This document shows positions 8,191-25,563 of a DNA stretch of 48,481 bases, in pieces. A model generated the notes under the pieces. The model ran no database searches. It was given only the letters and a program-made list of their open reading frames with translations, and was not told where the DNA came from. Source of the stretch: an uncultured Anaerolineales bacterium (GTDB taxonomy: Bacteria > Chloroflexota > Anaerolineae > B4-G1); contig CAZDYW010000001.1 in assembly GCA_964509655.1 (NCBI GenBank), positions 1 through 48,481 of the forward strand. Direction: 5' to 3'. Position 1 is the stretch's first letter, and each line of letters begins with the position of its first letter. A program made the position numbers and the translations under genes.

Positions 8191-9789
8191 ATGATGACTG
8201 AGAGAGAGAAAGGCTTGAGCGTGTCCGATACATCGAGTAGCATTGAGGATCGGGAGTATGTCTCTGAAAAAGCCGAGGATGAGACATTCGATTCGGTGCT
8301 GGTGGAGATCGCTACTGAACATGAAGAGCCTCTCGCTTGGGATGAGGAGGGCGAGCCCACTTTTGGCGAGTTGGAGAAAATCGAGAGCGAGCTGGATGAG
8401 GATAAGCACGACGCTATCCTTGAGTCGACCGATGATCCGGTGAGGATGTACTTGCTTGAAATCGGGCGCGTGCCTTTGCTGGAACATCACGAAGAGATAT
8501 GGCTATCCATCCAACAAGAGACAGAGGCATACTTAGAAAACATTAGATCGGTCCTGGGCGAACCTGGGAAAATAAAAGAGCGAGATGTTGTACTCGCTAT
8601 GGTGGATGTGCTTCGTGGAGCATGGTCAGAGGTACTTTATTGTTGCGATCAGCTTGGACTACCTTTGCCAAAACCGACCGCGTTGATGGATGAGGCGCAT
8701 GCTCTCCGTTACAGTCTTTTGCCCAACATTCATTCCTACCTCTACGAATTTATGAATCAGATTGGCTGGTCGAGTTCTGGTGATGAGTTACAAAATTCGC
8801 TTGTCGATCATTGTTTTGATGTTTTCGCCATGTTTATTCTGTTGCCTGAGCCTGTGATGAAATACCTTCACGAGGAGTGGGGCGATGATGTGGCTTTTCC
8901 TGATTTGCCAGCACTCGAACAGACGATCCCTGACGAAGAGACCATCGCGGTGAGTTGGTCCAATGTGGAAGCGCGAGTGCATGAAGCGCGGCAGCTTTTG
9001 GCTCAGGCAAACTTGCGGTTGGTGGTTAGTGTGGCCAAGAATTATACTGGGCGGGGCATCTCTTTCCTCGATTTAATCCAAGAGGGGAATATTGGATTGC
9101 TGCGGGCGGTTCGGAAATTTGATCATACTAAGGGCTTTCGCTTCTCGACCTATGCCACTTGGTGGATTCGCCAAGCGATCAGCAGGGCTATCGCCGATCA
9201 AGCGCGTACGATTCGCATTCCCGTGCATATGGTGGAAAAGATCAATCGTCTGATCAAGCTTAAACGACAGATGGTGCAGGAGTTGGGGCGGGAACCTACG
9301 ACTGAGGAGTTGGCGCTGGAGTCGGACATATTGGAGGCCGAGGTGAAAGCCGCGATCCGGATGGAGCAAGAAGAGGATGATACTCTTTCGCCGGTATTGA
9401 AGCGCAAATTGCGTCGCGCCACCGCCGAGGTGCGGCGTATCCTGCGCGTTTCCAAGGAGCCTATGTCGCTAGAGATGCCCGTGGGCTCGGAGGATGATAG
9501 TGTGCTGGGAGAGTTTATTGAGGATGAGAACATGCCCGGGCCGGTCGACGCGACCTCTTATCAGCTGCTCAAGGAGCAGGTCCGCTCATCGCTCGACATA
9601 CTCAGCGAACGAGAACGGGCAGTTCTGGAGATGCGCTTTGGCTTGAAGGATGGAGAGACACGCACCCTGGAGGAAGTGGGGCAAGTGTTCGGTGTGACAC
9701 GTGAGCGGGCGCGACAGATCGAATCGAAAGCTCTGCGCAAGTTACGTTACCCCGGCCGCAGTCACAAGCTGCGCGATTTCCTCAGTTGA
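8191..9789 (+). CDS. rpoD: Primary (group 1) RNA polymerase sigma factor
   Basis: Region 1.2 ([16 protein letters not shown]), region 2 ([31 protein letters not shown]), region 3, and the region 4 HTH ([28 protein letters not shown]) are present. The start is uncertain. The ORF is open from 8086 and overlaps dnaG. I chose the first ATG after the dnaG stop (8191). ATG 8140 is also possible. Confidence 0.92.
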
Positions 9790-9799
9790 TGGGGCTGTT

Positions 9800-10651
9800 T
9801 TAGGGTGTCGATGGCAGTGCCGTGAGCAGGGCGTCATCGAAGTAAACAGCGTGGTAGGTCTGTGCGAACTGCGTCTCCGCGAAGATACAGACGGTCGCTT
9901 GGCCCGATTGTCCCGTCGCGACCTCTGGGGAGAGGAGCATCACTACCCCATCATCTTGGTTGATGGTCTGTTCTTGGCCCCATTGCGCTTCATCACACCC
10001 CGCGTTGCCCTGTGGGTCTATCCCTGCCTTTACGATGTATCCGCCCTCTGTCTCCTTGACGAATCCCCTGGCGTTTACCTGGAACTGTAGGACAGTGTTG
10101 GGCTCTGCCTGCACTATTTGAAATACCCAAGCACGCAATTTCACCCAGGGCGTGGTGTCGATCTTGAGCGTCGAGCCGTTGATCTGGCGTTGAGGATCGG
10201 TGGCAGCTTGGAAGCGGGGAGCGGCGTAGGAAGTCTCAGGGTCGAATCCTTCACCGGGTTCCCAATTGACGAAGCCGCCCGTCTGCCAACCGGGAATGTC
10301 ATTTTTCCTGAGCTGATCGAAAGTAGGATTTTCAAGGGTGATCGGGGCCGGTGTAGGAGGGAGCGTCACAGTCATTCTCTCAAGGGGCGTGGCCCAGGGG
10401 GTGGGTATTTTGGTGGACGTGCTGGTTGGGCTGGGCTTGAGTGTGGCATATGGCGTGGAGCTTGGTGTAGGCGTCCAAGCGGGTGGCTCAGTGATGGTCG
10501 GTGTGAGTGAGATCGTCGGTGTCTCGGTGAGGGTTAGGTTGGGAGATACCTGTTGTGTCAATGAACGATGCACGGCATTCACCATTGCGCCTAGGATAAT
10601 GATATCGGCCAGTGCCAAAACTGCTATGATTATCCATTTTCGCCGGGACAT
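9800..10651 (-). CDS. Hypothetical membrane-anchored extracytoplasmic protein (N-terminal TM anchor, Thr/Pro-rich linker, C-terminal beta-rich domain)
   Basis: ATG at 10651 (MSRRKWIIIAVLALADIIILGAMV) with a GGAGG upstream on the minus strand. The TP-rich linker is TPTISLTPTITEPPAWTPTPSSTP. The C-terminal domain of about 180 aa looks like a carbohydrate-binding/jelly-roll fold, but the family is not identified. It is convergent with rpoD, with only 10 bp between the stops. Confidence 0.7.
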   Translation of the reverse strand: MSRRKWIIIAVLALADIIILGAMVNAVHRSLTQQVSPNLTLTETPTISLTPTITEPPAWTPTPSSTPYATLKPSPTSTSTKIPTPWATPLERMTVTLPPTPAPITLENPTFDQLRKNDIPGWQTGGFVNWEPGEGFDPETSYAAPRFQAATDPQRQINGSTLKIDTTPWVKLRAWVFQIVQAEPNTVLQFQVNARGFVKETEGGYIVKAGIDPQGNAGCDEAQWGQEQTINQDDGVVMLLSPEVATGQSGQATVCIFAETQFAQTYHAVYFDDALLTALPSTP

Positions 10652-10748
10652 GGAAGCCTCCTCTAGGACTATACATCGTAACAAGTTTACTCCATGTTTG
10701 CTATTCCGTCAACCGGACGCGGGAAGCGATCTTTATTCGGCAAGTGAT

Positions 10749-10777
10749 TTGACATCATTGCTGAGATGTGGTACACT
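10749..10777 (+). promoter_or_regulatory. Promoter candidate for the nuo cluster
   Basis: TTGACA (10749..10754), a 17-nt spacer, then TACACT (10772..10777), which is preceded by TGG (extended -10-like). Confidence 0.5.
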
Positions 10778-10844
10778 CTACCCCGTTGTAACCTTCTCGT
10801 CGAAAGCCGATTGAATACCACAGTGATCACCTTGGAGGAGCACA

Positions 10845-11201
10845 TTGCTGAATCAGTTTACTTTCGTCGGTGTTTTTCTTGTTATTGCACTTGCTTTTGG
10901 TGTTGCCCCGATTGCTATTGCCTTCTTCTTACGCCCCAAGAAACCCAATTCTCGTAAAGCATCTACCTATGAGTGCGGCCTAGAGCCCTACGGTGAAGCT
11001 TGGGTTCAGTTTAAGGCACAATACTACATCTTCGGCCTGGCCTTTGTCGTCTTTGACGTCGAGGCCGTTTTGTTGTTGCCATGGGCTGTGGCATATCATG
11101 CGTTGGGGCTTTATGCCGTGATCGAGGCTATGATCTTCATCCTTATTTTGCTTGGCGCTCTGGTTTATGTCTGGCGCAAGGGCGCGCTTGAGTGGATGTA
11201 A
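10845..11201 (+). CDS. nuoA: NADH-quinone oxidoreductase subunit A
   Basis: 118 aa with a TTG start 6 nt after GGAGG. It has three TM helices and the YECGLEP motif typical of NuoA/ND3. Confidence 0.9.
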   Translation: MLNQFTFVGVFLVIALAFGVAPIAIAFFLRPKKPNSRKASTYECGLEPYGEAWVQFKAQYYIFGLAFVVFDVEAVLLLPWAVAYHALGLYAVIEAMIFILILLGALVYVWRKGALEWM

Positions 11202-11277
11202 TTTAGCGCGTGGAGCGTGATGCAACTGAGGATAGGGCGATTCGATTAGCGATCGACGCTGGGATGGAGCTTTTTCT

Positions 11278-12462
11278 ATGGAATTTATCAAGGATTTGAT
11301 CCTCAATATCGGAAGTTGGTTGCAAGGGCTATTGATGGGCACGGGGTTGGCTCCTTCTTGGGTGCAGGTTATTATGCACCTCATCGGTGGAGTGGCGTTA
11401 GCCATTGTTCCGTTGGTAGCGGTGATTTTCCTCATCTGGGCTGCCCGTAAGATTGTAGGGCGAATGCAGGATCGGCTCGGTCCCAATAACTCCGGCCCTT
11501 ACCCCGGTCCTTACGCCATCTTCCAGACCTTTGCTGATGCCGTCAAGATGCTGACGAAAGAGGATGTTGTCCCCACCGCCGCCGATCGTGGGGTTTTCAA
11601 CATCGCTCCAGTGGTGATCTTGGCTTCCGCTGTGTTGGTCTGGGCTGTCATTCCTTTGGGTAAGGGACTCATCGGTGCCGATCTCAACATCGGCATTTTT
11701 TATATTCTCTCCATTGGCTCATTGAGCTTGATCGCGCTGATGATGGCGGGGTTGGGGTCCAATAACAAGTACGCTTTAGTCGGCGCTTTGCGTGCGATAG
11801 CCAATCTGATCAGCTATGAGATACCGCAGGTCATCGCCGTTATGACAGTGGTCATGGTCTCCGGTTCCTTCTCGATGCAACAGATCGTCGAAGCGCAGCA
11901 AGTGCCTTTTATCTTCGTGATGCCCTTGACCGCTTTCCTCTTCTTCGTCGGTTCCCTGGCGGAGGTGGGACGACAGCCCTACGACTTGACAGAGGCGGAT
12001 TCGGAGATTGTGGCCGGCTACTTTGTCGAGTACAGTGGGATGAAGTTTGGGCAGTTCTATCTATCGGAGTTTATGAATAACTTTGCCCTTGCTGTCATCA
12101 CCGCGACGCTTTTCCTCGGCGGGTGGCGTGGGCCATTTGTGGAAAGTGTGCCTGTTCTGGGATCGCTTTGGCTCTTACTCAAGGCATTGCTTGTTTTCTT
12201 CGTTCTCCTGTGGTTGTGGGGTACGATGCCCCGCTTGCGCATTGACCACATGTTGAGTTTCAATTGGAAGTTTTTGGTTCCTGTGGCACTGGCGAACTTG
12301 TGCGTAGTGGCCTTGGTAGGCAAAATAGTGCCGATGAGCGCTCCACCCTTAGTGCGTGCGGGAGCGCTTTTGGGGTCCAATATCCTGTTGGCATTGATTG
12401 TGTTGGCAGTTCTGGCGATTGCCGGTCGCCGAGCTCGGCGGCAGTTAGAGGTTAGTGGCTAG
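11278..12462 (+). CDS. nuoH: NADH-quinone oxidoreductase subunit H
   Basis: 394 aa with NuoH/ND1 blocks (AARKIVGRMQDRLGPN, YALVGALRAIANLISYEIP, PYDLTEADSEIVAGYFVEYSGMKF). It follows nuoA after 76 bp, with no nuoB/C/D between them. Confidence 0.93.
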   Translation: MEFIKDLILNIGSWLQGLLMGTGLAPSWVQVIMHLIGGVALAIVPLVAVIFLIWAARKIVGRMQDRLGPNNSGPYPGPYAIFQTFADAVKMLTKEDVVPTAADRGVFNIAPVVILASAVLVWAVIPLGKGLIGADLNIGIFYILSIGSLSLIALMMAGLGSNNKYALVGALRAIANLISYEIPQVIAVMTVVMVSGSFSMQQIVEAQQVPFIFVMPLTAFLFFVGSLAEVGRQPYDLTEADSEIVAGYFVEYSGMKFGQFYLSEFMNNFALAVITATLFLGGWRGPFVESVPVLGSLWLLLKALLVFFVLLWLWGTMPRLRIDHMLSFNWKFLVPVALANLCVVALVGKIVPMSAPPLVRAGALLGSNILLALIVLAVLAIAGRRARRQLEVSG

Positions 12463-12472
12463 GGATTAGACC

Positions 12473-12976
12473 ATGCAAATTACACTTCAACAAATTTTGT
12501 TCATTATTTTCGGCGCGATCACGTTGGGGGCTGCCTTGATGGTGGTGACGCGCCGCAATGTTTTCCACGCTGCACTCTTTCTCATCTTATCCTTCTTCGG
12601 TGTGGCAGGGCTTTATGTATTGCTGGAGGCCCCTTTTCTCGCCGCCGTACAGCTGTTCATTTACATTGGTGGCATCTCAATCTTGATTATCTTCGCCATC
12701 ATGCTCACACAAAACATGATGGATCCCAACTTGCCGGGAGCCAATCGCCAGTGGTGGGCTGCGGCCTTGGTGTCCGTGGCTATTTGCGGCATTCTGGGGT
12801 GGGTGGTGTTGAACCGTAATTGGGGAACAGCTAGCGCGGAAGTGCCTCAGAACACCATCACGATTTTGGGCACCGCCCTGGTGGACCCAGAAGGATTGTT
12901 GTTGCCTTTTGAAGTTGCCTCGGTCCTTCTCTTAGTAGCCCTCGTCGGTGCTGTGACTATCGCAAGGGAGCAATGA
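12473..12976 (+). CDS. nuoJ: NADH-quinone oxidoreductase subunit J
   Basis: 167 aa with a NuoJ/ND6-like pattern (VVTRRNVFHAALFLILSF..., LFIYIGGISILIIFAIML). It starts 10 bp after nuoH, with no nuoI between them. Confidence 0.9.
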   Translation: MQITLQQILFIIFGAITLGAALMVVTRRNVFHAALFLILSFFGVAGLYVLLEAPFLAAVQLFIYIGGISILIIFAIMLTQNMMDPNLPGANRQWWAAALVSVAICGILGWVVLNRNWGTASAEVPQNTITILGTALVDPEGLLLPFEVASVLLLVALVGAVTIAREQ

Positions 12977-12979
12977 TTT

Positions 12980-13288
12980 ATGGTTCCTTTAGCTTGGTAT
13001 CTTATTCTTGCAGCAGCTTTGTTCTGCATAGGATTGTATGGCGTTCTCTCGCGGCGTAATGCCGTGGCGATTTTGATGGGCGTCGAGCTGATGCTGAACG
13101 CTGTCAACATCAATCTGGTCGCCTTTTGGCGCCACCTGGAACCGGGAGCGGCGACGGGGCAAGCCTTCGCGCTTTTCGTCTACGTCGTCGCAGCCGCCGA
13201 GGCGGGTGTGGGCTTGGCGCTTATAATCGCCGTGTGGCGCACCCGTGACACTGTTGTCCTCGAAGACATCGATTTGCTCAAAGGTTAA
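12980..13288 (+). CDS. nuoK: NADH-quinone oxidoreductase subunit K
   Basis: 102 aa with the NuoK/ND4L signature ([44 protein letters not shown]). Confidence 0.93.
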
Positions 13289-13302
13289 ACACCGAGGTGA
13301 CT

Positions 13303-15711
13303 ATGGAGATTCTCAACCTTGCCTGGCTGATACCCCTCTTCCCATTTCTTGCATTTGTTTCAATAGCGATCTTCGCCCACCGGAGTCGCCGGTTAAGCCA
13401 CCAACTAACTATTGGCGGCATCGCTTTTGCTTTTCTGATCGCGCAGATTGTCTTTTGGCGGGCAGTGACTTTGCCGGTGGGTGGCGGAGAGCATGCCTTC
13501 GAGTCCTCGACTGTCCACTGGCTGGTTGCGGGCGAAGAGCGGCTTACACTCGGCGTCTACGTCGATCCGGCCACGACGGTGATGCTCTTTATGGTGCCCT
13601 TGGTCTGTATGATGATCTTCATCTACAGTGTCGGCTACATGAACTTCGGCACGCCGGAGGTGGATCCCCGTTACAGCCGCTTCTTCTGCTACCTCTCCCT
13701 CTTCGCTACCGGCATGTTGGGAATGGTGGTTTTCAATAATCTGCTGGCCTTCTTCATCTTCTGGGAGATTATGGGGACTTGTTCTTATCTCTTGATCGGT
13801 TTCTGGTATGATAAGAGCTATCCTGATCCGGATAAAATTACTCCCAAGGAGGCCGGGCTGAAGGCCTTCATTGTCACCAAGATCGGTGATTTGTTCTTTA
13901 TGCTCGGTCTGGCGCTGCTCTACGCCGAGGTGGGATCGCTGGCCTACCGGGACATCTTCGCCGCCGAGACTCTGGAGCATCTGGCCCATGCTAACTTCCT
14001 GGGAACTCAATGGTCGCTGGCCTCCGTGATCGCCCTTTTGTTGTTTGGCGGCACTGTCGGCAAGAGCGCACAGTTCCCGCTCCACGTCTGGCTGCCCGAC
14101 GCGATGGAGGGCCCCACACCCGTCTCCGCTCTCATCCACGCCGCAACGATGGTTTCAGCCGGCGTTTTTCTGGTGGTGCGTGCCTTCCCAATTTTCGCAG
14201 CGGTCGAGGGCACCCATATGACAATTGTGGCGACCATTGGGGCATTCACGGCCATCTTCTCGTCCGTCATCGCCGTCGCGCAGGATGACATCAAGGGAGT
14301 GCTGGCCTTCTCCACCATCAGTCAGTTGGGGTATATGGTTGCCGCGTTGGGTATCGGCGCTTATGTGGCTGGAGCCTTCCATCTCATCACTCACGCTTTC
14401 TTCAAGGCGCTCCTGTTCCTCAGTTCCGGCTCGGTGATCCACGGTATGGAACATGGACATCATCACGCCCACGAGCACGCGGAGCACCATGATAATCATG
14501 ATAATCATGAAGTGCATGATGAGCACGGCGAGCATGAGGAAGAGGAGTGGTTCAATCCCAATGATATGAAGAATATGGGCGGTTTGGCAAAACGTATGCC
14601 GCGTACCGCTTTACCATTTCTCGCTGGTGGGTTAGCCCTCTCTGGTTTTCCTCTGTTCACCGCTGGCTTCTGGTCGAAGGATGAGATACTGGCGCAGGCT
14701 TACGAGCTATCCCCCGCCGTCTTCTGGACGCTGGCTGTGGCCGCTGGTCTCACCGCTTTCTACACCGCGCGTCAACTCTGCTTGACCTTCCTGGGGGAGC
14801 CGCGCACCGAGGCTGCCAAGCACGCGCCGGAGAGTGTGCCGTCTATGACGACCCCCCTGGCTATTCTGGCCGTTTTCGCGATTATTTTGGGCTGGGCTGG
14901 TATTCCGGAGCACTTCCCGGTCATCGGCGGGATCATTCCCAACTGGGTCCATCACTTCGTTGGCTCGACAATCGCGGGTGGACATGCTGAGCATGCGGCG
15001 AAAGTGGCTGGACATCTCTCGGAGGCCGCAGAGGCAGGCTTTGTGTGGCAGCCATTGGTGATGAGCATCGTCTTCGCGCTGGGCGGGTTGACATTGGGCT
15101 GGCTGGTTTACGGTCGCAAGCCGATGGTGGCCGGTGAGATGGATCGGGTGGAAGCAGCAATGCGCAAAGTGGGCTTCGGGTGGCTGTACGAAGCTATGCG
15201 CGACCAATTTTACTTTGACGAGATCTACCAGGCGATAGTTGTGCGTCCCTCTATATGGTTGGCGGACGTTTTTGACACATTCGATTATGGTCGTGAAGAG
15301 GGCAAGCACGGTGTGGTAGACGGCGTAGTAGTCTTGGCCGGAAAGATTGGAAGGGCTATGTCCGACATCTCCGGTTGGCTCGACGCCAACATTGTGGACG
15401 GATTGGTCAACCTAGTCGGGCGCTTTGGAAAGGCCCTATCCTTGGTCAGCGGTTGGCTCGACGTCAACATCGTGGATGGGTTGGTCAATCTGGCGGGCAG
15501 CGCTGGAGCCCTGCTATCCAATGGGTTCAACAGCTTCGATCTCACTGTGGTGGACGGCGCCGTCAACGGCGTCGCCGATGTCGTCATGGGCGGTGGGAAG
15601 GCAATCCGCCCTATTCAGACCGGTAAGGTTCAAAACTATCTGCTGCTGGCATCCCTGATGGTGCTGGCATTAATCTTGACATTCTTTATGATATTGTTCT
15701 TGCAAATCTAG
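13303..15711 (+). CDS. nuoL: NADH-quinone oxidoreductase subunit L. This is an unusually long form (802 aa) with a His-rich insert and a repeated lateral-helix region.
   Basis: NuoL/ND5 blocks are present (FFIFWEIMGTCSYLLIGFWY, GKSAQFPLHVWLPDAMEGPTPVSALIHAATMV, ISQLGYM, HAFFKALLFL, MGGL). I prefer the ATG at 13303 (MEILNLAWLIPL), which is preceded by GAGGTG. The track start is the GTG at 13297. Confidence 0.93.
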   Translation: MEILNLAWLIPLFPFLAFVSIAIFAHRSRRLSHQLTIGGIAFAFLIAQIVFWRAVTLPVGGGEHAFESSTVHWLVAGEERLTLGVYVDPATTVMLFMVPLVCMMIFIYSVGYMNFGTPEVDPRYSRFFCYLSLFATGMLGMVVFNNLLAFFIFWEIMGTCSYLLIGFWYDKSYPDPDKITPKEAGLKAFIVTKIGDLFFMLGLALLYAEVGSLAYRDIFAAETLEHLAHANFLGTQWSLASVIALLLFGGTVGKSAQFPLHVWLPDAMEGPTPVSALIHAATMVSAGVFLVVRAFPIFAAVEGTHMTIVATIGAFTAIFSSVIAVAQDDIKGVLAFSTISQLGYMVAALGIGAYVAGAFHLITHAFFKALLFLSSGSVIHGMEHGHHHAHEHAEHHDNHDNHEVHDEHGEHEEEEWFNPNDMKNMGGLAKRMPRTALPFLAGGLALSGFPLFTAGFWSKDEILAQAYELSPAVFWTLAVAAGLTAFYTARQLCLTFLGEPRTEAAKHAPESVPSMTTPLAILAVFAIILGWAGIPEHFPVIGGIIPNWVHHFVGSTIAGGHAEHAAKVAGHLSEAAEAGFVWQPLVMSIVFALGGLTLGWLVYGRKPMVAGEMDRVEAAMRKVGFGWLYEAMRDQFYFDEIYQAIVVRPSIWLADVFDTFDYGREEGKHGVVDGVVVLAGKIGRAMSDISGWLDANIVDGLVNLVGRFGKALSLVSGWLDVNIVDGLVNLAGSAGALLSNGFNSFDLTVVDGAVNGVADVVMGGGKAIRPIQTGKVQNYLLLASLMVLALILTFFMILFLQI

Positions 15712-15759
15712 CAAGTAGGTAAGTGGGCAAGTGGGCTAGTAGGCAAGTGAACAAGTAGC
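15712..15759. repeat. Six tandem 8-nt units (consensus CAAGTRGG) immediately after the nuoL stop
   Basis: The units are caagtagg taagtggg caagtggg ctagtagg caagtgaa caagtagc. Downstream, cacttgc (15772..15778) and two cttgcag copies are complementary to, or related to, the unit. Confidence 0.8.
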
Positions 15760-15821
15760 ATAATAAGTCGGTCACTTGCAGACCTGCAAACTTGCAGACT
15801 CAAAAAGAAGGAGAGCATACT

Positions 15822-17348
15822 ATGTTTCCAATTCTGAGCGTTACCCTGTTTGCCCCGCTGGTGGGCGCCCTACTCATTTTGGTCATCCCGCGTGAGGATG
15901 TTAAAACAATCCGGCGGGTGGGGACCGCGTTTGCTTTCCTGACGCTCATCCTCACAACTATCATCTGGGTGAGTGTGGCGCAGTCAGGGCCCGGCGGTAT
16001 GCAGTTTGAGGAGAACTATCCCTGGATCAAGGCATTCAACGTGCGGTTTCACCTCGGGGTAGATGGTCTCAGTGCGCCTTTGCTCTTCTTGACCGCTCTG
16101 TTGACCACTCTTGTGACGTTCTACTCATCTTACACCATTGACGACCGGGTCAAGGAATACTATTTCTTGTTCTTGTTGCTTGAGATGGGTATGAGCGGTG
16201 TATTCCTTTCCCTGGACCTGGTGCTATTCTACGTCTTCTGGGAGATTGGTCTGGTGCCGATGTTCCTGCTTATCGGTGTGTGGGGCGGAAAGCGCCGTCT
16301 GTACGCGGCCATCAAGTTCTTCCTCTACACGCTCGTGGGCAGCGTGGCGATGTTGCTAGCCATCATCGGCGTTTACTTCCAGACCGGCACCTTCGACATA
16401 CTGGAGGCAGCGGCCGCGCAACCCTTCGCCGGTAACTTCACCTGGGCCAGTATGGCTTTTTGGGCCTTTTTCATCGCCTTTGCCATCAAGGTGCCCGCTT
16501 TCCCCTTCCACACCTGGTTGCCGGATGCTCATACGGAAGCGCCAACCTCGGGCAGTGTCATTCTGGCAGGCGTCTTACTGAAGTTGGGGGCTTACGGTCT
16601 GATGCGCGTCACGTTGCCCTTCTTCCCGGCGCAGTTCAAATACTTCGTCGTCAACGTGCCAATTATCCCCATCATGGCGGTGATGAGCATCGCCTACGGA
16701 GCGATGGTCTGTATGGCGCAGTGGGACCTCAAGCGGCTGGTAGCCTACTCATCGGTGGCTCATATGGGCTACGTTACACTGGGGTTGTGTGCGGCAGCGG
16801 CTGGTATCGGTATGCTGGACGATCCGGCGAACCTCAGCGCGGCGGCCTCTGGCCTCAGCGGCGCGGCATTCCAGATGTTCGCTCATGGCATCATCACGGG
16901 TGGGATGTTTTTCCTGGTCGGTATGATCTACGATCGGGCCCACACGCGAGACTTAAAAGCATTTGGCGGATTGGGTAAGCAAATCCCTTATTATTACGGG
17001 ATCGTGATGGTAACTGGATTTGCGTCCTTGGGGCTTCCTGGCTTGGCGGGCTTCTGGAGTGAGTTCTTCGTCTTCCGGGGCGCAATCCGCTTTATCCCCT
17101 TGGCCGCTTTCATCGGTGTTATCGGAGTAGTCTTCACCGCTGCCTATATCCTGTGGAAAGTTGTACAGCACCTCTTCTTGGGGGATCTGGACAAGGAGAA
17201 GTGGGGCAAGCTGACCGACATGACCTGGTGGGAGAAGGTGACGATGTGGCCTTTGGTGATCATCATGATTTTCCTCGGTCTCTATCCCGCTCCCCTGCTG
17301 GATATGTTCAACGCTGCGCTCACAGGGATTTTGCGGGCGCTGCCGTAA
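15822..17348 (+). CDS. nuoM: NADH-quinone oxidoreductase subunit M
   Basis: NuoM/ND4 blocks are present (FYVFWEIGLVPMFLLIGVWGG, AFAIKVPAFPFHTWLPDAHTEAPTSGSVILAGVLLKLG, LVAYSSVAHMGY). The ATG at 15822 (MFPILSV) follows AAGGAGAG. The track start (TTG 15792) is probably an upstream extension. Confidence 0.93.
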   Translation: MFPILSVTLFAPLVGALLILVIPREDVKTIRRVGTAFAFLTLILTTIIWVSVAQSGPGGMQFEENYPWIKAFNVRFHLGVDGLSAPLLFLTALLTTLVTFYSSYTIDDRVKEYYFLFLLLEMGMSGVFLSLDLVLFYVFWEIGLVPMFLLIGVWGGKRRLYAAIKFFLYTLVGSVAMLLAIIGVYFQTGTFDILEAAAAQPFAGNFTWASMAFWAFFIAFAIKVPAFPFHTWLPDAHTEAPTSGSVILAGVLLKLGAYGLMRVTLPFFPAQFKYFVVNVPIIPIMAVMSIAYGAMVCMAQWDLKRLVAYSSVAHMGYVTLGLCAAAAGIGMLDDPANLSAAASGLSGAAFQMFAHGIITGGMFFLVGMIYDRAHTRDLKAFGGLGKQIPYYYGIVMVTGFASLGLPGLAGFWSEFFVFRGAIRFIPLAAFIGVIGVVFTAAYILWKVVQHLFLGDLDKEKWGKLTDMTWWEKVTMWPLVIIMIFLGLYPAPLLDMFNAALTGILRALP

Positions 17349-17447
17349 AGAAACCAGGTTTTTATCACTAGAAACAAGTGAATTTCTTGCCTTTTGAGGT
17401 ATTCCGTGATGTCGGAAGCGCCTCCCTGAGCAAAAAACCTGGTTTCT
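17349..17447. repeat. Perfect 15-bp inverted repeat that brackets almost the whole nuoM-nuoN intercistronic region
   Basis: AGAAACCAGGTTTTT (17349..17363) and AAAAACCTGGTTTCT (17433..17447) are exact reverse complements, separated by 69 nt. The right arm ends 6 nt before the nuoN SD. Confidence 0.8.
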
Positions 17448-17465
17448 ACGTATAGGAGGACAACG

Positions 17466-18941
17466 TTGTTCGGAGAACCGATACTCACGTTAGGCCAGAC
17501 GCTATGGCTGCTCTCGCCGGAACTGGTGCTTCTCTTGACAGGTTTCCTCATTATGGGGCTGGATGCTATCCACCCGCAAAAAGAGGAAAAGCGCTGGGTG
17601 CCTTATGTTGCCTTGGGAGGGCTAGCCGTTGCCCTGATCGCATCTATCACCCTTTGGGGTTGTAACACCAGGGTGCTCTTCATGTTTTCCTGTGACCCTT
17701 TCTCGTTGGTCGTTAATATGGTGGCTATGTTGGCTGTGGGGCTTGTGATACTCTCATCCGATCCGTACATTCGAGTGCATAGTCGGTATCAGGGTGAGTT
17801 TTACGCTCTTCTGCTCTTCTCAGCTCTAGCCATCTGCCTCTTGGGTGGGGCGACTAACTTGATTATGGTCTTCTTGGCTTTTGATTTCCTGAGCATCACG
17901 TCATATATTCTCACCGGTTACTTGCGTGAGGATCAAAAGTCAACAGAGGCTGCGATCAAGTATTTTCTCTACGGCGCAGCTCTCTCCGCAATGATGCTTT
18001 ATGGAATGTCCTGGTTCTATGGGCTGACCGGCTCCACAGATCTGAACGGTATTGCAATGGTTCTCATGGAAGGGGAGCGTGTGCTGCGTCCAATCATCTT
18101 GCCAGCCTTGATCTTTATCGCCGCTGGCTTCGCCTTCAAAATCGCCGCTGTGCCATTTCACCAATGGGCTCCTGATGCTTATGAAGGTGCCCCGACTCCG
18201 GTAACGGCTTTTCTCTCTGTCGGGCCTAAGATCGGTGGCTTCGCCGTCATTCTACGGGTGCTTTTAACCGCCTTGCCTGGTGATCTGGTGAACCTGGCGA
18301 TGGATTGGCGGGCACTGCTGATGGCGGTCTCTATGCTCACGATGACGGTCGGCAACCTGGTAGCGCTTTGGCAGAAGAACATCAAGCGCCTGCTGGCTTA
18401 CTCCAGCATCGCCCAGGCCGGTTACATCCTTATCGGCGTGGTAGCAGCCTCTCCTCGGGGAGCGACAGCGGTTTTGCTCTACTTGGCGGCTTATGCGCTG
18501 ACCAACTTGGGCGCTTTCGCCGCTATCATCGCTTTCTCCAACCAGACCGGCTCCGATGCCATTGAGGACTACGCTGGGCTGAGCCAGCGAGCACCGGTGA
18601 TGGCCCTGGTGTTGATCATCTGCCTGCTCTCGTTAGGAGGCCTCCCACCGACGGCCGGCTTCGTCGGCAAGCTGTGGCTCTTCTCCGCGGCGATCGAGGA
18701 TGGGTTAATCTGGCTCGCTGTGGTCGGCGTGATCAACAACGTTATCTCTCTATCCTACTACTGGAAGGTCATCCGCGCGATGTACCTCACCCCTGCGCAG
18801 AACGGGGAACCGCTGTCTACCTCGCCCACAGTGACAGTAGCGCTGGGCGCGACGACGGTGGGCGTGCTTATCATTGGCGTCTTCCCAAGCCCGCTCCTGT
18901 CGCTTGTCCAGGCTGCTGCAGTGACCCTTTTCGGTGGGTGA
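17466..18941 (+). CDS. nuoN: NADH-quinone oxidoreductase subunit N
   Basis: 491 aa with a TTG start 6 nt after AGGAGG (17454..17459). NuoN/ND2 blocks are present (AAIKYFLYGA, FKIAAVPFHQWAPDAYEGAPTPVTAFL, LLAYSSIAQAGY). Confidence 0.9.
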   Translation: MFGEPILTLGQTLWLLSPELVLLLTGFLIMGLDAIHPQKEEKRWVPYVALGGLAVALIASITLWGCNTRVLFMFSCDPFSLVVNMVAMLAVGLVILSSDPYIRVHSRYQGEFYALLLFSALAICLLGGATNLIMVFLAFDFLSITSYILTGYLREDQKSTEAAIKYFLYGAALSAMMLYGMSWFYGLTGSTDLNGIAMVLMEGERVLRPIILPALIFIAAGFAFKIAAVPFHQWAPDAYEGAPTPVTAFLSVGPKIGGFAVILRVLLTALPGDLVNLAMDWRALLMAVSMLTMTVGNLVALWQKNIKRLLAYSSIAQAGYILIGVVAASPRGATAVLLYLAAYALTNLGAFAAIIAFSNQTGSDAIEDYAGLSQRAPVMALVLIICLLSLGGLPPTAGFVGKLWLFSAAIEDGLIWLAVVGVINNVISLSYYWKVIRAMYLTPAQNGEPLSTSPTVTVALGATTVGVLIIGVFPSPLLSLVQAAAVTLFGG

Positions 18942-19017
18942 CCCCCCGGCTCAAGGTAGAAAATGAAAGCCCAACCTCTCGCTACGCCATCCTAAACCCA
19001 ATTAAAATGATGCGGGT

Positions 19018-19046
19018 TTGACAAATTAAGGGGCGCGTGCTAGAAT
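19018..19046 (+). promoter_or_regulatory. Promoter candidate for the moaD-like/aor operon
   Basis: TTGACA (19018..19023), a 17-nt spacer, then TAGAAT (19041..19046). The predicted leader to the ATG at 19164 is about 110 nt. Confidence 0.5.
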
Positions 19047-19163
19047 CTTCCGGTCGCGTCTTGATTATGGCGCGTCTGGGACGCGCTTGGCGAGAGGTTG
19101 TTGATTCCCAAGACTGGCGTCTCTGGACTGTGTAGTGAAGTGCGAATTGAAGTGGCGGACTTG

Positions 19164-19454
19164 ATGAGAATCTCTGTTCAGGTGCAGTTGTTTGGACTTC
19201 CCCGTCTGATAGCGGGGGAGAAACAGATAAAGCTAAGACTGGAGCAGGATGCTACCTTCCGAGATGTTGTGCGCGTGTTGGCCAGACTGTACCCGGACAT
19301 GATCGGGGACGTGATCCAAGCTGACGGCGAAACGCTACAGGCGCCCAATATCCTTAACCTTGACGGAAGGCGGATGATCCAAGCTCATCAGATGGATGAG
19401 GGTCTTAGTGCAGGTGACCGAATCATACTAATGTCTATGTCAGCAGGAGGCTGA
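19164..19454 (+). CDS. MoaD/ThiS-family ubiquitin-fold sulfur-carrier-like protein (96 aa) ending in Gly-Gly
   Basis: MRISVQVQLFGLPRLIAGEKQIKL...DRIILMSMSAGG-stop. The size, the beta-grasp-like pattern and the C-terminal GG are typical of MoaD/ThiS. Its stop lies directly before the AOR start. The track start (19098) is an upstream extension, so the start is uncertain. Confidence 0.78.
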   Translation: MRISVQVQLFGLPRLIAGEKQIKLRLEQDATFRDVVRVLARLYPDMIGDVIQADGETLQAPNILNLDGRRMIQAHQMDEGLSAGDRIILMSMSAGG

Positions 19455-19457
19455 TTG

Positions 19458-21347
19458 ATGCAAGGCTACAGTGGAAGAATTTTGCACATTGACTTGACTG
19501 ATCGCAAGACGTGGGTCGAGTCGAAACCGGAGGCGTGGTACAAGACCTATATCGGTGGCGTCTCGATGGCTACCCGACTTTGTTGGGAGAATATTGAACC
19601 GGGCTGTGACCCGCTATCACCGGACAATCCGATCTGCATTGCGAACGGGATCTTCGCGGGGACTCCCGTGCCAGTGGGGGGAAAATACGGTATGGCGTCC
19701 AAGTCGCCATTGACTGGCTTCATCGGCGATAGCCTATCGAGCAGCTGGTTCACAGTCGCGCTCAAACGGGCGCGATGGGACGGAATCGTCATTCACGGAG
19801 CAAGCGAGGACTGGGTCAGGGTCTTCATCGACGATGAAAAGATTGAATTTCGTGACGCTTCTCACCTGAGGGGCCTGACCACCACGGAGACCGAAGATAC
19901 AATTCGGGAAGCGTTCGGCGATGATCAGGTACGGTCAGCCGTTATCGGACCGGCCGGTGAGAACCTGTCACGCATTGCCAACGTGAGCAACGATGGTCGT
20001 AAGGCAGGTCGCACAGGCCACGGCGCGGTGTGGGGCTCGAAGAAGCTTAAGGCGCTTTCCGTGCGTGGCACCAACGGGGTGCAGGTGGCTGATCCTGAGA
20101 AGCTGCTTGAGCTTTCATACGATATTCTCCAAGCGGCGCAGGGGCCGCACACTCAGAAGTATCGAATCCTCGGCACCTCGTCGAACGTGCTGAACATGAA
20201 CGAGCTGGGACTGCTGCCAACTAGAAACTACCAGGAAGGCGTGTTTGAGGAAGCTGAACTGGTCAGTGGCGAGTACCTGCACGAACACTACAAAGCGAAG
20301 ACGATCGCCTGCGCTCAGTGCCCCATCGCCTGCGAGCAGGTCGGACGTCTGAAGGAAGGGCCGTACGCTCCTGCGATGGGACACATCGAGTACGAATCCC
20401 TCTTCGCTCTATCCTCGAACTGCGGCGTTAGCGATATGGAAGCCTCGATCAAGGCCATCGTAAACTGCAACGAGCTGGGTATGGATACCATGAGCACCGG
20501 CGTGACCATCAGCTGGGCGATGGAGTGTTACGAGCGGGGCATCTTCTCGGAGGAAGACTTTGCGGGCGAGCGGTACCCAGAGGGCTTCGAAGCGAACTTC
20601 GGCAATGGTATGGCGATGGTGAGATTGACCGAGATGATCGCTTACCGGGACGGCACCATGGGCAACCTGCTGGCCGAGGGGACGAAGCGCGCGAGCGCGA
20701 CCCTAGACGAGGAGCGGGGCACGGAAAGCTATAAGTGGGCGATGAACATCAAAGGTTTGGAGACCCCCGGCTACGACGCCCGATCGCTCAAGACGTTCTC
20801 TGTCGGGCTCGCGGTGGGAACGCGTGGCGGGTGTCACAACCGGTCGGCGGCGTATGATCCCGACATCAAGGGCCAAGTAGATCGGTTCAGCGTCGACGAG
20901 ACCCGAGGAGAGCTGGCAAAGAGCACGGAGGAATACGCAGCCGTGTATGATACGCTGCCCCTGTGTAAGTTCATTCGTCGCTGCTTCACCGGAAAAGCGG
21001 ATCGCGAGGGAGCCTGGCCAGCTATTGCCAATCTGATCAACGCCACGACGGGCTGGGACTTCGACTACGACGCCGTGGACTTGATTGGCGAGCGGGCCCA
21101 CACGATGAAGAAGGCCTTCAACATCCGCGAGGGCTGGACGAGAGAAGATGATCACCTACCGTATCGGTGGCAGCACGAGCCGATGACGAAGGGAGTCTCG
21201 GCCGGTCACGTGGTGACCGATGAGGAATTGGAGTACCTCAAGGATCTCTACTACGAGGCCAAGGGCTGGACTGAGGACGGTTTGATCCCAAAGGAGAGAT
21301 TAGAGGAATTGGGGATGGAAGACGTCGCAGAAGAGATTGGTGTATAG
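19458..21347 (+). CDS. aor: Aldehyde:ferredoxin oxidoreductase family (tungsto-/molybdopterin enzyme)
   Basis: 629 aa. It has an AOR N-terminal domain (GRILHIDLTDRK..., GGKYGMASKSPLTG), the [4Fe-4S] motif CAQCPIAC plus a distal Cys, and pterin-binding blocks (GLETPGYDARSLK, GGCHNRSAAYD). The ATG at 19458 is 7 nt after GGAGG. Confidence 0.93.
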   Translation: MQGYSGRILHIDLTDRKTWVESKPEAWYKTYIGGVSMATRLCWENIEPGCDPLSPDNPICIANGIFAGTPVPVGGKYGMASKSPLTGFIGDSLSSSWFTVALKRARWDGIVIHGASEDWVRVFIDDEKIEFRDASHLRGLTTTETEDTIREAFGDDQVRSAVIGPAGENLSRIANVSNDGRKAGRTGHGAVWGSKKLKALSVRGTNGVQVADPEKLLELSYDILQAAQGPHTQKYRILGTSSNVLNMNELGLLPTRNYQEGVFEEAELVSGEYLHEHYKAKTIACAQCPIACEQVGRLKEGPYAPAMGHIEYESLFALSSNCGVSDMEASIKAIVNCNELGMDTMSTGVTISWAMECYERGIFSEEDFAGERYPEGFEANFGNGMAMVRLTEMIAYRDGTMGNLLAEGTKRASATLDEERGTESYKWAMNIKGLETPGYDARSLKTFSVGLAVGTRGGCHNRSAAYDPDIKGQVDRFSVDETRGELAKSTEEYAAVYDTLPLCKFIRRCFTGKADREGAWPAIANLINATTGWDFDYDAVDLIGERAHTMKKAFNIREGWTREDDHLPYRWQHEPMTKGVSAGHVVTDEELEYLKDLYYEAKGWTEDGLIPKERLEELGMEDVAEEIGV

Positions 21348-21357
21348 GAGAAACGTA

Positions 21358-21852
21358 ATGGTTCTTCCTTCAACTTCGAAGCACGAGTATATAGCGTGTG
21401 ATGCCGAGAAGTGCGTCGGCTGTCAGATATGCGAGTACGTCTGCTCATACAACAAGACAGGCGAATTCAACACATTTCGCAGCCGGATCCGTACCGTGCG
21501 TGAGCACAAGATTCTAATGACGGCGGTGGCCTGCCGCACGTGCGAGGATGCGCCGTGCGTAATCGCTTGTCCCCGCGATGCTTTGACCCAGGATGCGGAT
21601 ACTGGCGTGATCCGCGTGGACACAGGACGTTGTGACGGGTGCGCGTGGTGTATCGAGGCCTGCGACTTCGGTGCTATCTCCATCAACCCCCGGACCAAGC
21701 TGGCCGAGATGTGTGACCTGTGTGAGGACGAGGAGGATGGCCCCCAGTGCGTCAAGTGGTGTCCGAAGGAGGCGCTCGAGGTCACGATCCCCGATCGGAG
21801 AGCTCAGCGGGCGCGGCGCAAGCGGGCGATCGAGGAAGTCCTCGGGCGGTGA
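21358..21852 (+). CDS. Four-cluster [4Fe-4S] ferredoxin-type electron-transfer subunit (DmsB/HybA/AorA-like)
   Basis: Four Cys groups are present: CVGCQICEYVC, CRTCEDAPCVIACP, CDGCAWCIEAC and CDLCEDEEDGPQCVKWCP. The ATG at 21358 follows AGGAG. The track start 21337 overlaps aor. Confidence 0.88.
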   Translation: MVLPSTSKHEYIACDAEKCVGCQICEYVCSYNKTGEFNTFRSRIRTVREHKILMTAVACRTCEDAPCVIACPRDALTQDADTGVIRVDTGRCDGCAWCIEACDFGAISINPRTKLAEMCDLCEDEEDGPQCVKWCPKEALEVTIPDRRAQRARRKRAIEEVLGR

Positions 21853-21966
21853 GGTCGCGGATGATATAGCCTATCGTCGGGCGCGGTTGTGTCACTGGGA
21901 GCGCGATTACGGGATGTTCCGGTGGCGCGTCCTCGCTTGACACTGTGAGTTCCGAGATGTAGAGAG

Positions 21967-21996
21967 CGGGTCTGAACGTCGACACCCTCAGACCCG
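21967..21996 (+). other. 9-bp stem-loop between the AOR-ferredoxin genes and hdrA (possible terminator, processing site or leader structure)
   Basis: CGGGTCTGA (21967..21975), a 12-nt loop, then TCAGACCCG (21988..21996). The following sequence is pyrimidine-rich (ttcctttatt) but is not a clean U-tract. Confidence 0.35.
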
Positions 21997-22022
21997 ATAC
22001 GTTCCTTTATTGGGAGGACAGT

Positions 22023-24536: not shown

Positions 24537-24603
24537 GTTCACGGGGACTAGGACCACATGAGAGTCCCTTCTTTTGCAACAGAAGACGGTAGGAGAACGC
24601 CTA

Positions 24604-25563
24604 ATGGCAGATCAAAGGTCTCAAACTCAAACCTTCGCTGACCAGGTCCGTGCGATTCCCGGTGGAGAGCATCTGGAGATGTGTTACTCGTGCGGCACGT
24701 GTGTCAGCAAGTGTATGATTCAACAGAAGGTCGAGCCGGAGTACAACCCACGCCGCCTGCTGCGTATGGTGATCATGGACATGCAAGAGGAGGCATTCAA
24801 GAGCCCAACAACGTGGCTCTGCTCCGCTTGCGACCTATGCTATCCAGCTTGCCCGCAGGAAATTCACATATCGGGTGTCATCGGCGCGGTCAAACAGCTG
24901 GCCGTCGAGGCCGGCTATGAGTCGCCGCTGGAGACCGTCTCGGTGGACGAGTCGCTGTGCTCCGGCTGCGCCATCTGCGTGATGACATGTCCGTACGAAG
25001 CGCCCCACTTGGTGGAGAAGGAAGTCGATGGTGTGATGGACCGTCTCTCCGAGGTGGATGCGAACGCCTGCATGGGATGTGGCATCTGCGTCGCGGCATG
25101 CCCGATGGGTGCTATCTCGCGGCCCGGCGTAGCGAACGAGGAAATCCGGGCACAGCTCGACGTGCCCAGGCGAAACGGTGCGCCACGCATGGTGGCTTTC
25201 GTGTGTGACTGGTGCCTCCGAGCAGATGCAGACGTCACGCTTCTCGAGAGTTACCCTGAGAACGTGCAGGTAGTGCATATACCTTGTACTGGACGCATCG
25301 ATCCAGAGATGGCGCTTATGGCGCTGGGTTCAGACATCGACGGAGTGCTGGTCTGCGGCTGCGCGCCCGATGAGTGCCACTACCAGCGCGGCACGATGGT
25401 CAGCAGCTGCAAGATCGGGCTGTTGAATCGGGCGTTGGAGCAGATGAATATGGGCGACGGCCGGGTGCGCTTCGTACAGATCGGCACACAGGACCGTGGC
25501 CGCATCCGGAGCGAGATAGACCATATGATGGAGCACCTGGTGGCCTGGAAGGGGGCGGTGTAA
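24604..25563 (+). CDS. Three-module iron-sulfur protein: HdrC-like N-terminus, a 2x[4Fe-4S] ferredoxin, and a C-terminal MvhD/FlpD domain
   Basis: The modules are CYSCGTCVSKC...CSACDLCYPACP (HdrC-like), then CSGCAICVMTCP / CMGCGICVAACP, then VAFVCDWCLRADAD...IPCTGRIDPEM...VLVCGCAPDECHY (MvhD). The ATG at 24604 follows AGGAG. The track start (TTG 24574) is an extension. Confidence 0.85.
   Translation: MADQRSQTQTFADQVRAIPGGEHLEMCYSCGTCVSKCMIQQKVEPEYNPRRLLRMVIMDMQEEAFKSPTTWLCSACDLCYPACPQEIHISGVIGAVKQLAVEAGYESPLETVSVDESLCSGCAICVMTCPYEAPHLVEKEVDGVMDRLSEVDANACMGCGICVAACPMGAISRPGVANEEIRAQLDVPRRNGAPRMVAFVCDWCLRADADVTLLESYPENVQVVHIPCTGRIDPEMALMALGSDIDGVLVCGCAPDECHYQRGTMVSSCKIGLLNRALEQMNMGDGRVRFVQIGTQDRGRIRSEIDHMMEHLVAWKGAV

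Follow-up and report, generated by a model that had tools for sequence, protein, structure and literature searches.

The DNA considered here, called the window, is a stretch of 48,481 nucleotides (nt) from an uncultured Anaerolineales bacterium (contig CAZDYW010000001.1, positions 1 to 48,481), in which an operon at 10845-18941 encodes only membrane subunits of complex I, in the order nuoA-H-J-K-L-M-N. A membrane-subunit arrangement with nuoBCDI located elsewhere has been reported in Chloroflexi (PMC7117926). The subject of this work is the C-terminal region of NuoL, the subunit bearing the lateral helix (HL). Judged from the alignments, HL contains three supernumerary 26-residue units, which are tandem copies of an HL building block, and thus an iteration of the insertion known from complex I of the 2M type. 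Among relatives the number of such modules does not track the number of nuoM and nuoN genes in the operon. The coordinates of genes and tail elements are given in Table 1.

Table 1. Window positions of the nuo genes and of the elements making up the NuoL tail (HL, lateral helix; TM, transmembrane helix; AF2, AlphaFold2; pLDDT, predicted local distance difference test)
Feature	Position	Strand	Remarks
nuoA	10845-11201	+	Pfam Oxidored_q4
nuoH	11278-12462	+	Pfam NADHdh
nuoJ	12473-12976	+	Pfam Oxidored_q3
nuoK	12980-13288	+	Pfam Oxidored_q2
nuoL	13303-15711	+	802 residues from ATG 13303; longest reading frame, from GTG 13297, 804 residues
TM15, final helix ahead of the HL region	15043-15114	+	AF2 helix 582-604
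HL module 0 FDEIYQAIVVRPSIWLADVFDTFD, canonical N-terminal half	15214-15285	+	aligns to FDELYEAVFIKGCRRLARQVLEVD of T. elongatus NdhF; AF2 helix 635-661
Loop YGREEGKHG joining module 0 to unit 1, lineage-specific	15286-15312	+	AF2 coil 662-670
Extra HL unit 1 VVDGVVVLAGKIGRAMSDISGWLDAN	15313-15390	+	orthologue of unit 1 in the 4-module relative L001
Most recent DNA duplication, first copy	15368-15419	+	spans the unit 1/unit 2 junction; 81% identical to the second copy
Extra HL unit 2 IVDGLVNLVGRFGKALSLVSGWLDVN	15391-15468	+	youngest copy; start like unit 3, end like unit 1
Most recent DNA duplication, second copy	15446-15497	+	spans the unit 2/unit 3 junction
Extra HL unit 3 IVDGLVNLAGSAGALLSNGFNSFDLT	15469-15546	+	orthologue of L001 unit 2; AF2 pLDDT <50 at 724-744
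Unit 4 VVDGAVNGVADVVMGGGKAIRPIQTG, canonical C-terminal half of HL	15547-15624	+	matches VVDGVVNLTGFVTMVTGEGLKYLQNG of 6hum_F in alignment, as well as the equivalent segments of 8qby_L, 4he8_L and 8e9g_L
TM16, C-terminal membrane anchor of HL	15625-15708	+	AF2 helix 776-801; aligns to TM16 of solved NuoL/NdhF
nuoM, sole copy in the window	15792-17348	+	Pfam Proton_antipo_M; BLAST classification of all reading frames
nuoN, sole copy in the window	17466-18941	+	Pfam and BLAST classification

The gene most likely starts at ATG 13303, which is preceded by a Shine-Dalgarno-like GAGGTG, within an open reading frame (ORF) spanning 13297-15711 on the plus strand. The frame is intact, and a database protein of 802 residues (P0001) is identical to the product. 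Pfam assigns to it the domains Proton_antipo_N (E 2.4e-12) and Proton_antipo_M (E 2.6e-71). The closest solved chain is the cyanobacterial NdhF 6hum_F (phmmer E 6e-114), other solved relatives being 8qby_L (Paracoccus NuoL), 4he8_L (Thermus Nqo12) and 3rko_L (E. coli NuoL, 2e-81). An AF2 model of NuoL (94 homologues; pLDDT 84.8, predicted template-modelling score 0.81) matches solved NuoL/NdhF chains in Foldseek with TM-scores of 0.83-0.86, and AF2 helices together with the alignment of the tail to solved structures delineate the C-terminal succession of TM15, HL and TM16. The motifs FIFWEIMG, GKSAQFPLH, LIHAATM, HAFFKALLF and GFWSKDEIL, nearly invariant in the homologue alignment, are all present, and by motif the charged residues of the proton path are kept (Glu in TM5, Lys in TM7, His in TM8, Lys/Asp in TM12). 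The Glu of FWEIMG, the Lys of GKSAQ and the Lys-Asp pair of FWSKDEIL we take to be the counterparts of E. coli E144, K229, K399 and D400.

Two other identities have been considered and discarded. MrpA, or an MrpD-like replacement as in the 'green' complex I, does not fit a protein which lacks an MrpB-like extension, and MrpA chains score far below NuoL/NdhF (6z16_A, E 2e-43, against 6e-114 for 6hum_F). A cyanobacterial or plastid NdhF was rejected because the operon is a nuoAHJKLMN operon of Anaerolineales metagenome-assembled genomes (MAGs), and no NDH-1-specific genes have been seen in the window. A separate peculiarity of the NuoL core is a His/Asp/Glu-rich insert of 37 residues, HGMEHGHHHAHEHAEHHDNHDNHEVHDEHGEHEEEEW, located in a loop (window 14440-14550, residues 382-418). 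It has no counterpart in the solved NuoL/NdhF chains aligned, is modelled at pLDDT <50, and its HGMEHGHH start is kept in many relatives from Anaerolineae; it may be a metal-binding loop.

The repeat array and its place in the lateral helix

Four units of 26 residues begin at nt 15313, 15391, 15469 and 15547, corresponding to residues 673, 699, 725 and 751 (unit coordinates follow the 804-residue numbering from GTG 13297, AF2 helix coordinates the 802-residue numbering). Mean BLOSUM62 autocorrelation peaks at lag 26 (1.85), lag 52 being second; the maximum over lags 5-59 in shuffled sequences is -0.11 +/- 0.16, and the lag-26 value has been attained in 0 of 5000 shuffles. At the protein level, identities are 15/26 between units 1 and 2, 13/26 between 2 and 3, and 10/26 between 1 and 3. 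Unit 4 shares 5-6 residues out of 26 with units 1-3, and the VVDG.VN start is the only part common to all. A nucleotide repeat search identified a three-copy family spaced 78/78 nt; the copies are too diverged for Tandem Repeats Finder, which did not call the array even at score 30. The best DNA match at lag 78 extends over 52 nt with 81% identity. The same array of four units has been found in independent assemblies as well (P0225/L002, 96% identity; P0226; P0002, 91%), and the array is therefore no assembly artefact.

Full-length alignments to solved structures follow the core and the FYFDEIY segment, and then jump to FDLTVVDGAVNGV...QTG...TM16, leaving residues ~652-746 unaligned. Upon in-silico removal of the loop and units 1-3 (119-residue tail), the protein aligns to residues 572-651 of 6hum_F with zero gaps, and to 8qby_L, 4he8_L and 8e9g_L with 1-3 gap positions. 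Since the collapsed tail aligns nearly gap-free to the solved chains, alignment places the insertion at residues 664-750, between the canonical halves of HL, and makes it 87 residues long (the 9-residue loop plus three units). The same partition emerges when tails are cut into 26-mers backwards from QTG. The HL of T. elongatus yields exactly two blocks, FDELY...VDYN and VVDG...LQNG, and in this register a module starts with FDELY in T. elongatus NdhF as well as in the window protein and its relatives. The FDEIY...FD segment of the window NuoL is the first 26-residue block, or module 0, which aligns also to the equivalent segment of the Paracoccus, Thermus and Mycobacterium proteins. Counting all HL blocks from FDE to QTG, module 0 included, the canonical helix has two modules (52 residues), the helix studied here five (137 residues, or 5 x 26 + 7), and the protein ends 28 residues beyond QTG. 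The 7 residues in excess of the register are contributed by the YGREEGKHG loop; the excess at that point is 0, 6-7 or 18-19 residues in relatives. The NuoL tail has a second variable element where module 0 meets unit 1: an insert of 18-19 residues (e.g. YGQPVQKEVDGKVVVMRKHG) replaces the short loop in many relatives (P0016, P0018, P0020, P0024, P0027-P0033, P0044, P0055).

An earlier note on this DNA, drawn up from the letters alone, had described a NuoL with four in-phase units at the four positions given above, the last one corresponding to the single VDG..VN...QTG segment of canonical NuoL, and three extra ones within the lateral helix region. Translation agrees exactly with the units and their phase, the shuffles support the period, the domains and the best solved relatives identify the protein as NuoL, alignments to solved chains recover the single canonical segment and match it to unit 4, and the collapsed tail delimits the insertion. 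The note had also seen units 2 and 3 as repeated at the DNA level; the repeat is real, but links two junctions, unit 1/2 and unit 2/3, and not unit 2 as a whole with unit 3.

AF2, run on NuoL alone and read as secondary structure and pLDDT rather than as coordinates, predicts a continuous helix at 671-735, which covers units 1 and 2 and half of unit 3, and along which pLDDT drops from ~80 to <50. A break at 736-741 is followed by a helix at 742-771 (end of unit 3 and unit 4), and then by TM16. The repeats are thus predicted to be helical, and not to form a compact folded-back bundle, with low confidence in unit 3. Of the two alternatives of the earlier note, an HL architecture departing from the known one is the one left standing. 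All units are amphipathic, with hydrophobic moments of 0.32-0.46 near 100 degrees; the moment of units 1-3 taken jointly is attained by 2 of 2000 shuffles. An ideal helix, with 100 degrees per residue, would turn its hydrophobic face by ~85 degrees from one unit to the next. Only a twist of 96.9 degrees per residue (360 x 7/26) brings the faces of the four units into line (6, 22, 12 and 15 degrees), and the helix must therefore be either slightly underwound or reset at each unit junction, the canonical HL likewise. The consensus derived from 122 internal units is VVDGlVNlvGr.gR.lS.lsgwfD... Among orthologues of the same architecture mean pairwise identity is 0.49-0.68 for the extra units and 0.54-0.76 for the canonical ones; being nearly as conserved as the latter, the extra units appear to be under purifying selection.

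Module number among relatives

What is already known comprises NuoL, the lateral helix, and the insertion of one 26-residue segment into this helix. The insertion was described in 2M complex I (Chadwick et al. 2018) and, according to the papers that cite this work, is thought to span an extra NuoM (PMC9040806, PMC6606698, PMC7117926); the earlier note was right about such an insertion. Both 2M complexes and the window have a lengthened NuoL with a 26-residue insertion in HL, but the window has it three times in tandem, and combines three extra modules with a single nuoM, whereas 2M complexes combine one extra module with a second, adjoining nuoM. No second nuoM adjoins nuoL or nuoM in the window, where one nuoM and one nuoN reside. 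The 2M type occurs also in Chloroflexi (Anaerolinea thermophila type, with nuoL-M-M-N, and nuoBCDI elsewhere), and includes the relatives L018, L023, L078, L080 and L085. In 'Ca. Manganitrophaceae' (Nitrospirota), the NuoL of Complex_I_1 and Complex_I_2 and the MrpD2 of Complex_I_3 carry a 26-residue HL insertion, found even where a second NuoM is lacking, as in the window; the insertion is single, and neither multi-copy arrays nor copy-number variation are reported (PMC9040806). Canonical NuoL/Nqo12/ND5/NdhF proteins (6HUM_F, 8QBY_L, 4HE8_L, 3RKO_L, 8E9G_L) share with the window protein the fold, the TM15-HL-TM16 order, the FDE..Y start and the VDG.VN...QTG end of HL, but have two modules (~52 residues from FDE to QTG) instead of five modules and a loop (137 residues). 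In MrpA the chain continues beyond TM16 with an MrpB-like domain, and HL there extends over two subunits; the window protein stops at TM16, and is nearest to NuoL/NdhF. In the searchable literature, where the 2M paper itself is represented by the papers citing it, we have found no description of a tandem array of three extra modules, nor of a series of 3 to 6 (8) modules, of a junction-straddling duplication, or of a module number decoupled from that of nuoM.

Relatives have been surveyed at two levels. The 120 best database matches to NuoL are proteins of 700-850 residues from MAGs of Anaerolineae/Chloroflexi, and a scan of one genome per species provided 80 loci from Anaerolineales and Caldilineaceae, nearly all of which have the order nuoA-H-J-K-L-M-N. 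ORFs were classified by BLAST against the window Nuo proteins, gene content being viewed within ~10 kb of nuoL in relatives and across 48 kb in the window, and the FDE-QTG length was measured in 75 of the 80 loci (76 with the window). Three modules have been found in 55 loci (45 with one nuoM, three with two, seven ended by the contig), four modules in 16 (14 with one nuoM, one with two, one ended by the contig), five in 4 loci, the window counted, and six in one locus, the latter five all with one nuoM. Proteins at least 70% identical to the window NuoL comprise one with 3 modules, 19 with 4 and nine with 5. The 3-module protein P0015 and the window NuoL, which has 5 modules, are identical at 51 of the 54 positions of the last unit and TM16.

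Synteny leads in the same direction. P0005, which has 5 modules as the result of another duplication, resides in a locus syntenic with the window, where nuoM and nuoN are each present once. The order dnaG-sigma70-nuoAHJ(-PPase)-KLMN-moaD-like-AFOR (AFOR, aldehyde:ferredoxin oxidoreductase; PPase, pyrophosphatase) is shared by the window and L086, both having 5 modules arisen by separate duplications; in L001, which has 4 modules, the nuoAHJ-PPase-KLMN part is common with the L086-type synteny. The 6-module P0083 is encoded in a J-K-L-M-N cluster, while L085/P0087, which also has 6 modules and a recent triplication, shows J-K-L-M-M-N as in the 4-module L018. Operons of the 2M type among the relatives thus carry 3, 4 or 6 modules. 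In the window lineage module number is independent of nuoM number, unlike the correspondence seen in 2M complexes: since 3-6 modules coexist with one nuoM and one nuoN, and 2M operons hold 3, 4 or 6, HL is not a counter of the pumps encoded in the operon.

The earlier note had confined the cluster to one nuoM and one nuoN, as Pfam and BLAST analyses of the 48-kb window do, and had predicted that extra antiporter-like subunits might be encoded elsewhere. This prediction is not supported at the level of loci: in 76 loci and five further contigs module number is 3-6, or 7-8 in two atypical clusters, and, a few 2M operons apart, the operon keeps a single nuoM and a single nuoN. As far as operon-encoded genes are concerned, the same repeat number does occur along with a standard L-M-N arm, which the note had held to speak against its own proposal. 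No antiporter-like (PF00361) gene besides nuoL, nuoM and nuoN has been found in the 48-kb window by Pfam and BLAST, and, 2M operons apart, none in the 10 kb around nuoL in those relatives that have 4-6 modules. Candidate hiding places proved to be otherwise occupied. The gap between nuoJ and nuoK in L001, L003 and L086 holds an H+-translocating pyrophosphatase (PF03030, E 2.5e-219; L001 7527-9623, L003 7415-9613, L086 7534-9618), which is not found in the window, and the gaps between nuoL and nuoM in L027, L030 and L049 are taken up by unrelated or mobile genes.

The longest tails have been found in the NuoL paralogues P0098 (8 modules) and P0111 (7 modules), encoded in nuoJ-K-L-M clusters with no nuoN downstream (L081 9057-14009 and L087 113-4495). 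The L087 cluster reads K-L-M with the contig start just upstream, and L081 also lacks nuoA and nuoH upstream. P0098 has a degenerate core motif, LIQSAT for LIHAAT. Such clusters are either decaying, or part of a different kind of complex.

When 1.84 billion representative proteins were searched with units 1-3 (phmmer, E <= 1e-3), no more than 105 clusters matched, and almost all of these were tails of NuoL or pieces of such tails. Multi-module helices are therefore rare, and concentrated phylogenetically. P0196, P0201 and P0203 were dismissed as unit homologues, being unrelated repeat proteins matched by composition. P0201 (1386 residues) is a tape-measure-like protein with a ~40-residue repeat (…FGDVGGWVNSNVIQPVLNFFTALPGQVG…), and its weak match to the HL unit is probably due to a convergent amphipathic-helix composition.

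How the modules arose can be read in part from their own sequences. Internal units and last units match by hhalign (P 6e-6 across all 26 columns). The last unit has the consensus vVDGlVNgVG.., module 0 the consensus ..lLA..faWFD, and internal modules are hybrid, the front half being like the canonical last module, the back half (..S....WFD..) like the end of module 0. A tandem duplication of 78 nt (26 codons) across the junction between module 0 and the last module would produce such a hybrid, and unequal recombination between copies would then add or remove whole modules, which explains changes in whole 26-residue quanta. The latest duplication in the window lineage shows the same junction-straddling signature. 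The 4-module L001 holds the orthologues of window units 1 and 3, and unit 2 combines the start of unit 3 (IVDGLVNL.G) with the end of unit 1 (SGWLD.N). The duplicated copy is of the unit-3 type in P0005 and P0006, while P0008, P0011 and P0021 have a VVDRLVDLTGLGTRALSDLS-type unit, and P0046 and P0087 three near-identical unit copies. Different units have been duplicated in different lineages, and gains are therefore recurrent and independent. The notion that module 0 is an ancient copy of the unit was set aside, as the hhalign match is weak (P 0.0024) and shifted by one residue, and the hybrid origin needs no such homology; homology of the two canonical HL halves is not claimed.

Genes flanking the operon

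Upstream of the nuo operon the window carries genes for PPDK, DnaG and a sigma-70 factor. The interval of ~1 kb between the sigma-70 gene and nuoA (9790-10845) contains no recognisable gene, ORFs of both strands being without a Pfam match. Between nuoL and nuoM (15711-15800) an 8-nt repeat, GCAAGTGG/GCAAGTAG, occurs five times, and is followed by three copies of its complement ACTTGCAG; as RNA, the repeats would form a long, imperfectly paired hairpin (-31.1 kcal/mol; z = -2.6 relative to shuffled sequences), which could be an element involved in mRNA processing or stability.

Downstream lie a MoaD/ThiS-like ORF, AFOR, ferredoxin-like and HdrA/MvhD-like genes, and farther on the genes for the ATP synthase a-subunit, a Mur ligase, Rho, FBPase, a protein of the cytidylyltransferase family (PF01148) and a DUF2298 protein. 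The small conserved ORF following nuoN was evaluated, and rejected, as an accessory subunit of complex I: it is MoaD/ThiS-like, ends in GG, and goes with the downstream AFOR genes. The nuo operon is repeatedly linked to the MoaD/ThiS-like ORF (ending in SAGG), AFOR, ferredoxin and HdrA/MvhD-like genes, in an order varying by lineage (window 19098-28036; L086 15815-22433; L088 49-7613; L085 8717-9121). In the window the small and large subunits of a [NiFe]-hydrogenase also follow. The gene neighbourhood hints at a ferredoxin- or hydrogen-linked electron input. Upstream of nuoA-H-J-K-L-M-N, most Caldilineaceae loci, and L041 (1226-6166, minus strand), directly carry a divergent second nuoA, and after it nuoB and the fusion genes nuoCD and nuoEF, making two nuoA genes per such genome. 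L083 has, between nuoJ and nuoK, a HEPN/nucleotidyltransferase gene (8960-9682), with an ATPase region downstream (12792-19358); L084 is alike.

The lengthened helix in the membrane arm

The lateral helix was first proposed to act as a piston, and is now mostly regarded as a stabilising strap. It is the amphipathic helix which connects TM15 with TM16, and lies along the antiporter-like subunits on their cytoplasmic face. In Mrp antiporters the amphipathic HL of MrpA, between TMH15 and TMH16, braces antiporter-like neighbours on the cytoplasmic side and links their TMH7s (PMC7419157). The explanation that best accounts for the data as a whole, to which we assign a probability of about 0.65, is that the elongated HL is a strap on the membrane surface rather than a ruler counting pumps, in a complex with the usual L-M-N pumps. 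As to geometry, it is an even bet that TM16 keeps the same docking site, and the additional ~85 residues are taken up as a further helical excursion lying on the surface. The anchor is almost unchanged while HL varies by 78 Å, and one-step duplications have been repeatedly tolerated, which suggests that the docking of TM16 has been kept.

Several observations weigh against this explanation. Small residues (G10, G13, S17) and polar ones (D3, N7, D24) are conserved in every unit, and such a face resembles a protein-packing rather than a lipid-facing surface, and would fit docking on further subunits. The helix modelled by AF2 is uninterrupted over 65 residues, with no turn allowing the return to the canonical docking site, in a prediction made for NuoL alone and at low pLDDT. 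The state with 3 modules and one nuoM is old and stable in Caldilineaceae, which suggests that the third module has a defined partner. Lastly, nuoM and nuoN can be displaced from nuoL. In L030, nuoM lies 5 kb away, and in L083 and L084, which encode the 6-module P0046, an integrase and an ATPase operon (ATPase_gene1) follow nuoL instead of nuoM and nuoN, and the pump genes must therefore be elsewhere in that genome.

Read the other way, HL could be a modular, evolvable spacer which sets the architecture of the arm, either as a clamp between NuoL and NuoH with TM16 moved, or by recruiting up to three extra antiporter-like subunits. We regard this as rather doubtful. If a spacer did set the architecture by recruiting subunits, up to six pump modules would be reached, against a known maximum of five, and Anaerolineales with 3, 4, 5 and 6 modules would form a series of differing H+/e- stoichiometry or bracing.

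In the former version, five modules would make one straight helix of ~200 Å, running past NuoM over NuoN and NuoK/J/A/H, and would be held by a TM16 anchored close to the heel, so that the clamp would embrace the entire membrane arm and not only L-M(-N). Five modules of 26 residues at 1.5 Å give ~195 Å, close to the length of the bacterial membrane arm. The modelled continuity through units 1-2 and half of unit 3 fits, as does the phasing of the amphipathic faces at 96.9 degrees per residue, expected for a single, slightly underwound helix on one surface; the conserved Gly/Ser/Asp face suggests protein contacts, and the stable state of 3 modules with one nuoM (45 loci) could reflect one module each over L, M and N. 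Yet, close relatives with the same operon differ by one to three modules, and the near identity of last unit and TM16 in a 3-module and a 5-module protein (51/54) is hard to square with different neighbours of TM16. Relatives with 6-8 modules would overshoot the arm, and K/J/A/H offer surfaces without homology to those of L/M/N. A straight strap of this length is accordingly an unlikely arrangement.

Still less likely is a molecular ruler, in which each extra module fits one antiporter-like subunit encoded elsewhere, for a total of up to six pump modules. The 26-residue quantum is that of 2M complex I, where the papers citing the original work hold it to span an extra NuoM (PMC9040806, PMC6606698), and 26 residues at 1.5 Å amount to ~39 Å, about the width of one subunit. 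In the group of the window nuoM and nuoN can be encoded apart from nuoL, and copies of nuoM and nuoL outside the operon are known in Nitrospira (PMC6606698). Neither the window nor the 10 kb around nuoL in relatives with 4-6 modules provides the additional PF00361 genes, however; the 2M operons, with their 3, 4 or 6 modules, do not follow the rule, and each duplication would need a new subunit instantly, which is implausible given several independent recent gains, among which the triplications of P0046 and P0087. A 26-residue insertion without a second NuoM has moreover been seen already in Manganitrophaceae (PMC9040806). That the array is a functionless product of slippage in a decaying gene, or of mis-assembly, is barely credible: copy number is labile, and the 7- and 8-module P0111 and P0098 sit in J-K-L-M clusters without nuoN, P0098 with LIQSAT for LIHAAT, but the window protein keeps its key residues (E of FWEIMG, K of GKSAQ, H of LIHAAT, KD of FWSKDEIL) and an intact frame, the divergence of the units (58% protein, 64% DNA) excludes assembler duplicates, the array recurs in independent assemblies, and conservation between orthologues is about equal for extra and canonical units.

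The 26-residue insertion of 2M complexes is the main comparative argument for HL length matching pump number. In the lineage of the window the same module has been iterated up to three to four extra times (six in two atypical clusters), repeatedly gained and lost among close relatives, and conserved, while operon and TM16 anchor stayed constant. A natural series of near-identical enzymes with 3, 4, 5 and 6 modules is thus available to test what HL length means for assembly, stability, stoichiometry and supercomplex contacts. As a caution, a long NuoL in metagenomic annotations is no ground for inferring extra pumps or higher H+/e- ratios. The function of HL as a structural element has been a matter of long debate; in this bacterial lineage, the length of the helix and the number of pumps encoded in the operon are uncoupled.

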